Shown here: one piece after another, positions 59,201-62,200 of the stretch | Layout: each line of letters begins with the position of its first letter | How positions within the stretch are numbered: position 1 is the stretch's first letter | DNA from: Macrostomum lignano | Lineage: Eukaryota | Assembly: GCA_002269645.1 (NCBI GenBank) | Contig: NIVC01001277.1 | Coordinates: 1-64,000 of the forward strand | Direction of reading: 5' to 3' | Length of the DNA: 64,000 bases | Notes under the pieces: generated by a model | Told to the model about the DNA's origin: nothing | The model's database searches: none | The model's input: the letters and a program-made list of their open reading frames with translations, nothing else | Position numbers and translations under genes: made by a program

Positions 59201-62200
59201 CCCCGCTTCGCCCCATGAACTGCGCCTGAGAGCCAATTTTCTCCCCGATGAGGCCCCGCAGCGAGTTTATCTACATGTAGAACGCTACTTCTTGGCGGCC
59301 AGAGGGCCGCAAGAAGGTCCCGCCACCTCCTGTTACGTTGATGGCTGAGACTTTGTTAAGGCCCGAGTTCCTGCGAAAGGGCTGCTGTGTGGGGGTTGGA
59401 TTTGGGGTTCGGATTAGTTATTGCTATGGAACAGGAGCTGGTTTCTAAATGGCTGAGTGGTCCCCGGAAGGGCTCCTGATTTGCCGAGAGTTCCTGCGAG
59501 AGGGCTGTTGTGTGGGGTTGGATTCGGGGTTCGGATTGGTTATTGCTATGGAGCGGGAGCTGGTGTTACTTACCAACTCTCGTCGTATATAATCTCGCAC
59601 ACAGCCGGAAGGAAAGCTCACAGTGAACAAAATGAACTTCAAGACATTATCGAACAGATTTCGAATCGGCGTCAGGTCGCACTCGAAGTGCATCAGCATC
59701 AGAAAGTGGTACAAATTTGATGAAGAGTATCGACCAGGTCTGCCTGGCATGGAGCTCACCGTCCACCAGTTTTGCCACTTGGGCAGCCTGAAGGAACGAC
59801 TGGAAGAGTTTGCAAGAAAGTGTATCGATGCGCAATGCCTTCTGGGTGGCAACAGGCAAGTGGTTGTGCAAAATGGCGTAATCACACTCTGGCGCCTTCC
59901 AACTGTACTCGGACCGCCGGTGCACCTAAGGCACGCCTTACCGCTTCCTACAAAACTTTGGCGCGAAGTCTGGGCTCAAAAGCATTGGGTCCTAGACAAA
60001 ATTGACAAGCGAGAACCTCCGGTCAAGCCACCGATCGGCGATCCATGGTGGATGGGATACCACCCTACGGAGCCTGAAGAGTGTGCAGCATGGGCAGCAA
60101 GGCTTACACTCGACCAACTTATACAAGTACCTGACAGGCAGCCGGCAGAGTGGGACGACCACTGGGAGGCTTTCCAGGCAGTTCAGGCTGAATTTAGAAA
60201 GAGATTTGCATCCGAAACTCTGGAAGTGCCATCAACAGCTGAGAAGAACCAACAGCCTTCATGCCACCAGCCACCAATGAAGCGACGCGCAATGCATGAA
60301 GCGACAACTGGTCATTTCGTCAAGTAACTTTTTTTTTAAATATAGTTTTGAACCATAGTACTGATCATGCACTGTTGTATATACTGCTTTGTCAATACTG
60401 GCTATAATATTGCCCCATGATGCTTTAATTTCTTGCGATAATACCTGTTTTGTAAATACACGTGACGGGCCTTAATACTGCCCTTCCATTCTTCATAAAC
60501 TTTTTTTGTGCTAATAGGAGCTTTTAACATGTAATTTTATGCTTTGCAATCCATGGACCTGCCAATTAAATAAACAAAAAAAACGTTTCATTTTTGTGTA
60601 CAAAAGATAAGAAAAAATAAACGCGAATGCAACTATGTTTGTGCAACAATGCTTACAAAAAATACAGAAGTAAAGTTATAGGAAAAATATTATTATTATT
60701 ATTATTATTACTCAGTGCATAGGCAGATCTCACTACTACTGTTATGCCGTAGAGGAGCTCAGTCAGAGTCCAGCAAAGTAGGTTCGGATGCTTGGTCTGC
60801 ATGCAAAATGCGGGAGAGGGCATCAGCTGCAGTCTGAGCCTCAACCACGCTGCGAGCACCAGCTATTATACAGCGATATGAATGAAACAAAATCAACTTT
60901 ACAGAAGCAGTAAACTCGAGCACAAGTCCGTTAAACATTTCCGGCTCATAGGTGCCCCGATGCGGCCATTTAGACTTGACTTCCCCCAACCGGAGTGGAT
61001 GCCGACCCGCGGGAAAGGTCGTCACAGAGGTAATAGTCTTGATGCGAATCTGGGGCAGACTGGTCAATCGCAAGAAGTCCGCACACAGCTTCACAATCTT
61101 CTCTGTCTCTGCGAGAGCTTCCTCCATGCTTTTGGCTCCACAGACAGACACTTGTCCGGTCGGATACACCAGCGCGGTTACTCGATGCTGCCCGCTCTTC
61201 ATCACCACTGCCAGTGTTCGAGGATGAACCAGGCGATGGCGGATTGTGTGATACTGAGGCAGATGAAGAGTCAGGAAATTCGCTAGTTGTGGCAGAGCCA
61301 CCCGGGTCGCCAGGTCGGCTCCTGTCACGATGTTTGTTACGCGAATTGTTGCGGCCATCTTTAGACAATCGAGAGAAATGCCAGTGCCTGCTGCAGATCG
61401 CTACTTTTATAGACCCGTAGCCGCGAGGCCGCAGCCAATCAGCGTACAGCGCCACCTTGGCCAGGGCGCAGGGTAGCACGTACTTCGAGGCACTCGGAAA
61501 GGCCAGGTGTGCGAGGTCGTAGACAGGCTGTAGCAGCAGACGCGACAGGAACTGGCACTTGACATCCCCCTTGCTGAATATCGGGCCTTGCAAGTGGGAG
61601 ATATCGCTCCAGAGACAAGAGTAGGGTCGGAACCCACTCCTGTCCCAGTCTAGACCGTGCCGCTTATTGGTGAGCCAGTAGCAGGTTCGTCGCTGTCCTC
61701 GATCAAAGAGCTCAAAGCTGTGCGGCGGTCGGTAGCAATAGTAATGAGCCGTCGTTTGACCGCATGCAAACTCAACCCATGCAATTTCCTTAATCACAAA
61801 GTCCTCTGTTTTGTAGAGGTGCGGAAATCCTTCAAAATCAATGACAATCATCTTGGCCACTTGATCCACTTGCCGTATCCTTTCTGAGACTGAGTCTTCT
61901 TATAGCCTTGCAGACGAGGTTTTTTAGGACTGGACTTTTCTTCCCGAGGCTTTTCCAGCAATTTTGTAGTGTTCAGACCAACTGCAGACAGAGGCACGTG
62001 GTTTTCTTGAAGACACGTAACAAACTCATTAATCCCATTCGGTGGCTGAAGGTACTTAGAGTACGTATCTTTAACTATGAAATGCAGCAGGTCCACGATA
62101 TTTGAGTTGTACAACGGTTTACCATTGACAGAAACTTCATACGTATCATCTATGCTAATCGACTTGCACTTTACGGTTATGAAGCTAATCAATGCCTGCA

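Follow-up and report, generated by a model that had tools for sequence, protein, structure and literature searches.

An old TATA-binding protein gene in Macrostomum lignano Polintons and its proposed matching G6 promoter box

The 64,000-nucleotide stretch of the Macrostomum lignano genome analysed here (contig NIVC01001277.1, positions 1 to 64,000; the window) contains an 11.9-kb Polinton (51537-63464) that encodes its own TATA-binding protein (TBP). The element starts with AGTAGT in its left terminal inverted repeat (51537-51793, plus strand) and ends with ACTACT in the right one (63238-63464, minus strand), the inverted arms being ∼250 bp long and 85% alike. It is flanked on both sides by TGTCTG, a 6-bp target duplication, with a 2-base phase shift of a 4-base microsatellite. 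Inverted repeats, AGTAGT ends and a 6-bp duplication are the termini of a Polinton, the end motif being that of PMC8097293. The TBP gene (60759-61358, minus strand) represents lineage A, one of eight Polinton lineages (A-H) that we sampled in this genome and defined by their packaging ATPase. The gene is real, old and shared by several lineages, and it comes with a matching promoter box; in kind, the system is a viral TBP with a modified TATA box.

The initial annotation had described an intact, intronless open reading frame (ORF) of 199 codons inside the inverted repeats, with both halves of the TBP saddle, and our data bear this out. The frame has no intron or stop codon, PF00352 matched it twice (Pfam; E=5.6e-19, 68 bits against a cut-off of 22.9), its AlphaFold model is a saddle (pLDDT 88.4, pTM 0.79) and its top Foldseek match in the PDB was yeast TBP (E=2.8e-12, TM 0.69), placing it in the TBP family by both Pfam and structure prediction. 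The Foldseek titles include a complex with the G(-26) TATA variant, and many fold matches in BFVD were among TBP-like proteins of large DNA viruses. The second-lobe features reported earlier were also found: the stirrup YEPE is kept at 137-140, E138/E140 forming the acidic pair of the TFIIB contact, as are both phenylalanines (F142 and F158), and QNM is lost, reading KTI. For the first lobe the earlier description stands in part. Of the four intercalating phenylalanines (yeast numbering), F190 and F207 are kept, F116 is tyrosine (Y65), as claimed, and F99 is leucine (L49) only in a pairwise alignment and proline in multiple alignments, non-aromatic in both. The insertion assigned to the first stirrup is present (10 residues) but sits before the stirrup, between helix 1 and the next strand (alignment A1). 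The second helix, basic in host TBP (6 Lys/Arg and 3 Asp/Glu) and in lineage B, has an acidic composition in lineage A (3 and 5); there the basic patch used by Mot1, TFIIA and TAF1 is partly lost, which may give freedom from host control.

A TBP-like frame was found in 8/8 of the lineages sampled, so the rarity suggested by the initial annotation does not hold: in this genome the gene is a shared feature of Polintons. A search with the window protein gave 150 scored matches (200 candidates), 46 in lineage A and 104 in lineage B at 34-39%. Intact copies exist elsewhere, residues 1-199 being matched without a stop in 16 of the 30 best loci, and the lineage-B TBP loci fetched for context lie in Polintons (3/3). 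Lineages C-H, six identity groups, were reached through more distant packaging ATPases; the TBPs of C and D are very divergent and lie further upstream than the stretches first inspected. That of D exceeds the Pfam cut-off (29.4 bits), and that of C has no Pfam match and an hhalign probability of 92.5. Searching with the lineage D protein gave 64 matches, on 11/16 non-A/B ATPase contigs and in all six groups C-H. The TBPs of lineages A-H are 15-68% identical to one another, those of A/B and C-H 15-22%, and each is 17-28% identical to host TBP. In C and D one cassette holds the gene together with PolB, a deoxynucleoside kinase gene and two unassigned ORFs, the kinase being in frame with TBP in D; lineage C also has a dUTPase gene.

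Since the gene is intronless, it might be a recent retrocopy of host TBP, carried as a functionless passenger, and constraint is indeed relaxed in lineage A, where 13 full-length copies hold 23 nonsynonymous and 20 synonymous variants (ratio 0.41) and the pooled ratio of nonsynonymous to synonymous variation (pN/pS) is 0.51 over 24 loci, frameshifted tails included. Against this origin, the protein is only ∼23% identical to the host TBP core, has relatives in other data sets at 60-63% (A) and 46-81% (B), the sole named ones annotated Macrostomum lignano, and is under purifying selection in the first lobe in lineage B (pN/pS 0-0.25 in 28/28 pairs). We also built a tree of 64 rows (14 from elements, host TBP and TRF2, 9 from IMG/VR and 39 from a library, group labels guessed from sequence), in which A, B and C-H form long-branch groups. 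In approximately unbiased (AU) tests, run on a quick tree search with long branches, a clade of elements with host TBP was rejected (p-AU 0.024), counter to nesting as a host retrocopy, and a single clade of all element rows was not (p-AU 0.70, the tree so constrained scoring 11.7 higher). The recent-retrocopy origin is thus largely refuted by selection in lineage B and the AU test, and we regard it as most improbable. None of the 9 IMG/VR rows joined the element rows, and a FastTree placement of A/B near archaeal-like rows was treated as long-branch attraction.

Searches beyond the genome gave little of the same kind. No candidate was accepted in a search for lineage-D TBP homologues (0/79) or in an IMG/VR scan with the window protein (0/7), an IMG/VR scan with alignment A1 gave 12 loci at 21-31%, and a metagenome scan with P0008 gave a single short partial match with no usable context. 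The ESM Atlas returned TBP clusters only, some of them short, with nematode, chordate and viral members, and ten short divergent TBPs among the library sequences carry no organism names. Within lineage B, a recombination point lies inside the TBP gene (L051-L053, L034-L041) and the chimeric frames remain open: recombined pairs have first-lobe pS down to 0.05 and second-lobe pS of 0.6-0.9, and L051 and L052 are 95% alike as far as roughly base 300 of the gene, past which they are dissimilar and run into different PolB modules.

The DNA-binding face has been remade in the same way in all lineages, whereas the TFIIB-facing surface has been kept. With yeast numbering, which fits host TBP at 24/24 positions, the changes F116Y, V122S/T, N159T/S and V161T/S occur in 12/12 element rows and 0/7 reference rows; all four are DNA-binding positions in Table 1 of PMC12529657, a source available in part. 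Phe190, Phe207, Glu188 and an acid at 186 are kept in all 12 element rows, the stirrup pair reading E-x-E in A/B and D-x-E in C-H. These two acids contact TFIIB, and viral TBPs, which vary there, bring their own TFIIB (PMC7221094, in its available part). No element-borne TFIIB was found with PF00382, which had 15 matches on 7 contigs of the genome, none multicopy, in a search whose control was positive in 4/14 genomes and which a very divergent TFIIB could escape. The two clades differ at two further positions, A/B keeping Leu114 and having lost Pro191, and C-H having Gln114 and Pro191 kept.

Upstream of virion-module genes of each lineage stand TATA variants with G at position 6 (G6 boxes), NWTAAGAA in A/B and TATAAGC in C-H. 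On the plus strand of the window, CATAAGAA (54656-54663) lies 35 nt upstream of a retroviral-type integrase gene with a chromodomain (54691-55909; rve, E=1.3e-13, Pfam), as expected of a Polinton. Two boxes precede a putative minor capsid gene (55906-56688; no family match), ATTAAGAA (55811-55818) by 95 nt and CTTAAGAA (55894-55901) by 12 nt to the first ATG and ∼36 nt to the second. TATAAGAA (56530-56537) is ∼155 nt upstream of a small basic ORF, with a box at the equivalent place (-149) in both lineage-B elements, and a second CATAAGAA (56826-56833) is 107 nt upstream of a putative major capsid gene, split into two frames in this copy (56933-58205; no family match, single-sequence fold model at pLDDT 31 only). 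The variant CATAAGAG (58565-58572) is 109 nt upstream of a packaging-type ATPase gene (58674-59273; AAA match below cut-off), whose lineage-B counterpart has a weak Pox_A32 match (E=0.011). On the minus strand, TATAAGAA recurs at 62764-62771, 35 nt upstream of a conserved 110-residue ORF (62404-62736; no family match) and in 21/22 sister loci, and at 61897-61904, 53 nt upstream of an exonuclease-like ORF (60970-61851; no family match) and in 27/27 sister loci. Both capsid labels are ones we assume from size and gene order, and the exonuclease label likewise from a DEDD-like start; all three are putative.

WTAAGAA precedes 6/12 genes in lineage A (7/12 counting the ATPase variant) and TAAGAA 8/12 in each of two lineage B elements (B1 and B2). 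In A/B the boxed genes are those for integrase, minor capsid, small basic protein, major capsid, ATPase, the 110-residue protein and the exonuclease-like protein, with TBP too in B; no such box was found in A, B1 or B2 before the PolB, protease, 198-residue and PC4 genes. Comparing the stretches from -170 to -8 with the rest of both strands, WTAAGAA occurred 7 times in 1,944 upstream positions of A and once in 21,912 elsewhere (p 2e-7), 7 versus 8 times in B1 (p 9e-6) and 7 versus 3 in B2 (p 2e-7). Near-miss words had no enrichment common to the three elements. Among upstream hexamers TAAGAA took first place in A and B2 and second place in B1, where it became first once the integrase start was set at an upstream ATG; TATAAG was the top one in C (9 versus 2, p 7e-10) and D (4 versus 4, p 5e-4), where boxes precede 8/15 and 4/13 of the listed genes, with sense:antisense ratios of 11:0 and 7:1. 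Lineages E-H, fetched after the residue pattern had been noted, all have Gln114/Pro191, and TATAAGC stands before the minor capsid and 110-residue genes in 4/4 of them, as predicted from the residues beforehand. The motif was first noticed by eye, and B1 and B2 are related to each other, as are C-H. In the host DNA of the window, 102,400 positions contain 9 WTAAGAA and 2 TATAAGC. TATAAAC was rejected as the box of the window element, in which it occurs once. In several C-H lineages (L077, L079, L081, L083, C and D) an TATAAGCT/TATAAGCA box lies at or just past the end of the 198-residue-like gene and ∼240 nt upstream of the integrase frame, and may be the sign of an overlooked first exon or small ORF.

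Most A/B boxes fall within the final codons of the gene before them, in many cases Lys or Arg codons, and under synonymous resampling the chance of a single site reaches 0.25-0.35, as if the box were no promoter but arose with stop codons and protein ends rich in Lys/Arg, or else served as an RNA-processing signal (3' end or trans-splice acceptor). We consider either very unlikely. Homologous boxes keep equivalent places in different reading frames or in non-coding DNA. In C all 11 TATAAG sites have the sense orientation, and 10/11 are not contained in any ORF of at least 100 codons. Boxes reach up to 157 nt into the preceding ORF, which a 3'-end signal would truncate, and no pyrimidine tract precedes them (46% T+C in the 20 nt upstream of 30 boxes). 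The TAAG core invites a different explanation. It is the late promoter motif of baculoviruses and is invariant in all lineages, so that the box could mark transcription start sites used by a helper DNA virus with its own RNA polymerase (a late promoter of baculovirus or nudivirus type), much as virophages copy helper promoters, with TBP a separate matter. Such a reading is improbable, since within a single host genome the flanks vary with the TBP clade, many boxes are grouped 35-60 nt upstream of the ATG, as a TATA box would be, and the full box is far more enriched than plain TAAG. Searches of the genome for LEF-8 and VLTF3 gave no match, and neither did their controls.

Other genes of the element have canonical promoter sequences. 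As first annotated, the TBP gene of the window lies behind a TATA box and a CCAAT box: TATAAAAG (61404-61411, minus strand), a candidate host-read promoter 53 nt upstream of the ATG, is kept in 27/28 sister loci covering it, and GATTGG, with the CCAAT box at 61435-61439 (plus strand; ATTGG on the TBP strand), in 28/28. Both lie within the frame of the upstream exonuclease-like ORF. A gene for a PC4/p15 coactivator-like protein (59632-60327, plus strand; 23 bits against a cut-off of 25, its lineage-B homologue being above the cut-off at 29.6) has the canonical-type TATATAAT (59586-59593, plus strand) 46 nt upstream of its ATG, kept in 25/28 loci. The TBP genes of C and D have no G6 box. The PC4/p15-like gene is a second host-type transcription factor on the elements, in lineages A and B, and the left subterminal region (52188-52345) has three ATTGG boxes and TTTATAAAC, another candidate host-read promoter.

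These observations lead us to the reading that the element TBP is probably an old late-promoter specificity factor that docks host TFIIB and RNA polymerase II (Pol II). The TBP and PC4-like genes have observed canonical TATA/CCAAT promoter sequences, which host TBP would read. The element TBP would then bind the G6 box through its remade, more polar DNA face, NWTAAGAA in A/B and TATAAGC in C-H being its proposed target boxes and the genes for integrase, capsid, small basic protein, ATPase and the two conserved genes its proposed targets, and the kept acidic stirrup would dock host TFIIB and so bring in host Pol II. One small protein would thereby suffice for a switch from early to late expression, with no need for the element to supply its own polymerase or TFIIB. 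The initial annotation had proposed that the element redirects host Pol II to its own promoters, and the lineage-specific TATA variant before virion genes, the shared DNA-face changes, the kept acidic pair and the failure to find an element TFIIB argue for that part of its proposal; the remaining steps we infer.

The fit between protein and box can be followed residue by residue. From the two-fold symmetry of TBP, we take residue 122 to face base pair 6 and residue 114 base pair 7. G6 goes with Ser/Thr122 in all lineages, A7 with Leu114 and C7 with Gln114. In the available part of PMC1636458, the C-lobe of TBP reads the 5' half of the box and the N-lobe the 3' half, Pro191 is said to limit position 1 to T, L205 lies near base pair 2, and three face changes in the engineered TBPm3 let TBP read a G-containing box. 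Position 1 is variable in A/B, where Pro191 is lost, and T at 13/17 TAAG sites of C, where it is kept; throughout C-H Pro191 is kept and position 1 is mostly T. Box types thus appear to track residues 114 and 191, a match that is suggestive only, because it is a contrast of two clades.

A different role for the protein is unlikely but has points in its favour: the box would be a weak promoter used by host TBP or TRF2, possibly helped by a host activator, and the element TBP would titrate TFIIB, Mot1 or NC2 and so damp host transcription or defence, the decoy of the initial annotation. The acidic stirrup is the best-kept surface, the first-lobe Phe changes could weaken DNA binding, and wild-type TBP has a cavity structurally able to take G at position 6 (PMC1636458, as far as that source is available), in line with the G(-26) complex among the Foldseek titles. 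The same source, however, records no G at position 6 or 7 in its wild-type TBP selection, in the part available, and CTTAAGAA deviates in three places from the canonical TATA consensus, which is supported as a predictor of activity (PMC2396422, also available in part). Moreover, box type follows TBP clade, and a decoy does not need a conserved new DNA face, yet identical polar changes recur in rows that are 15-22% identical.

Several points weigh against a late-promoter factor. Binding, start sites and the order of expression are all deduced from sequence, and shared descent alone could give a residue-box match that rests on two clades. Wild-type TBP accepts G6 in its cavity (PMC1636458, in part); therefore TATAAGAA may be a weak host site. 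The gene starts and the -170 to -8 stretch were chosen after A and B had been inspected, box-to-gene distances range from 12 to 166 nt, and in A, B1 and B2 WTAAGAA is missing upstream of the protease gene. A/B have a non-aromatic residue in place of one of the intercalating first-lobe Phe. The lineage A TBP is less constrained than four neighbour genes (pN/pS 0.41-0.51 versus 0.08-0.36), which would either tell against a strong role there or reflect decay after insertion. Finally, the lineage B TBP gene stands behind a G6 box and lacks a canonical TATA, so that a simple cascade would have difficulty in starting.

The copy in the window is itself damaged, with most of PolB missing, the major capsid gene split and a block inverted. 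A probable PolB remnant (53305-54073, plus strand), recognised by likeness to sister-lineage PolB frames, keeps both ends of the region and lacks the middle; sister A loci carry long frames that start like it, and a lineage-B PolB frame matches PHROG 1907 DNA polymerase (E=7e-10), with no match in Pfam or PDB sequences. The inverted block (59278-62774) has TACATGTA at both breakpoints, at the first of which the ATPase gene terminates. In 23/29 sister loci the ATPase end joins the 110-residue gene, the window's joints occur in 0/29, and the usual order is ATPase, 110-residue, 198-residue, exonuclease-like and TBP genes, all on one strand; the inversion, and hence the orientation of the window TBP gene, is private to this copy. 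The sister joint appears in two of four runs guessed to be RNA, which gave low-depth contigs over the element, one of them unspliced across a probable intron (54829-54934) in the lineage A integrase gene; introns were not seen in vertebrate Mavericks (PMC8097293). The element also carries a gene for a cysteine protease (58202-58660, plus strand; Peptidase_C48, below the Pfam cut-off) and a conserved 198-residue ORF without a family match (61848-62444, minus strand), and its unnamed ORFs have no Pfam or PHROG match. In lineages A and B the exonuclease-like frame continues out of frame across the first TBP lobe, its length differing among copies, and frameshifted copies yield exonuclease-TBP fusions such as P0036. 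The insertion site is a (TGTC)n microsatellite (51251-51536 and 63465-63535) with an exon of a host gene for a tyrosine phosphatase (Y_phosphatase3, Pfam) on either side, and putative transposase-like frames at 39549-41760, without a Pfam match, would belong to another mobile element of the window.

We found no paper that describes animal Polintons with a TBP, or with a box matched to one, although supplements, subscription journals and Repbase may hold annotations. The terms 'TBP' and 'TATA' are absent from the main text of PMC8097293, PMC11161782, PMC11131425, PMC11071296, 10.1101/2023.08.22.554363, 10.64898/2026.06.19.733378 and 10.64898/2026.10.13.758929. In the available part of PMC8502044, 'TBP' is a figure-legend label without functional text (Fig. 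5, MELD viruses, in a section on non-animal datasets), and the accessible portion of the preprint 10.1101/697771 likewise confines it to MELD-virus figure legends. The initial annotation had allowed that the gene might already be documented: a label exists for MELD viruses, and no description was found. What is new here is the lineage-matched G6 box before virion-module genes of TBP-bearing Polintons.

A named factor and box make the timing of capsid and packaging genes, and a viral cycle in animal Polintons, testable, and two clades with two boxes form a natural series of altered-specificity TBPs with which to test the structural code of TATA reading. Going further, we suggest tentatively, at slightly less than even chances, that an ancient TBP gene runs through a broad animal Polinton branch, each lineage having an orthogonal TBP-box pair on host TFIIB, the smallest known late switch of a DNA virus. 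If so, several TBP-box pairs per genome would stop co-resident lineages switching each other on, lobe-swapping recombination of the kind seen in lineage B would be a route to retuning, and functional evidence would exist for a staged viral programme in these 'transposons'. The TBP with its box would be a third independent solution to late transcription, beside those of herpesviruses and large DNA viruses, and one that appears to keep host TFIIB.

The elements share with Polintons, Mavericks and adintoviruses the AGTAGT ends, a 6-bp repeat at the flanks and the integrase, and putatively also PolB, ATPase, protease and capsid-like genes (PMC8502044, in part; PMC8097293), and the eight Polinton core genes of PMC8097293 omit TBP, the PC4-like gene and the promoter box. 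With cellular TBP and TRF2/TBPL1 the protein shares the fold, the C-lobe Phe pair and the stirrup; unlike cellular TBP, it lacks an N-terminal tail, is multicopy and mobile, and does not group in a clade with host TBP. The TBPs of Nucleocytoviricota and mirusviruses are likewise short, divergent, two-lobed proteins of double-stranded DNA viruses. Those of large DNA viruses are mostly paired with a TFIIB of their own, have variable stirrup glutamates and carry Phe at L5.1 in 90% of lobes (PMC7221094, available in part), whereas the PF00382 search gave no TFIIB gene on the elements and every element first lobe has Tyr there.

The closest parallel is the herpesvirus viral pre-initiation complex (vPIC; KSHV ORF24, EBV BcRF1, HCMV UL87), which also combines a viral TBP fold with a more polar DNA face, a modified TATA box (TATTWAA, ∼30 bp before late genes) and host Pol II (PMC6541308 and PMC12529657, both in part). 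In ORF24, L114 and V122 are also changed to polar residues, yet the protein is large, binds Pol II itself, depends on five partners, retains all four Phe and has none of the TFIIB glutamates (PMC12529657, in its available part). The Polinton protein is instead a bare TBP of 190-200 residues (199 in the window) with the acidic stirrup pair kept and the first-lobe Phe changed, and Pfam and PHROG recognised no vPIC-type partner genes on the elements. As in herpesviruses, a modified TATA box stands before structural genes, with a different change: T at position 4 in the herpesvirus box and G at position 6 in the Polinton box.

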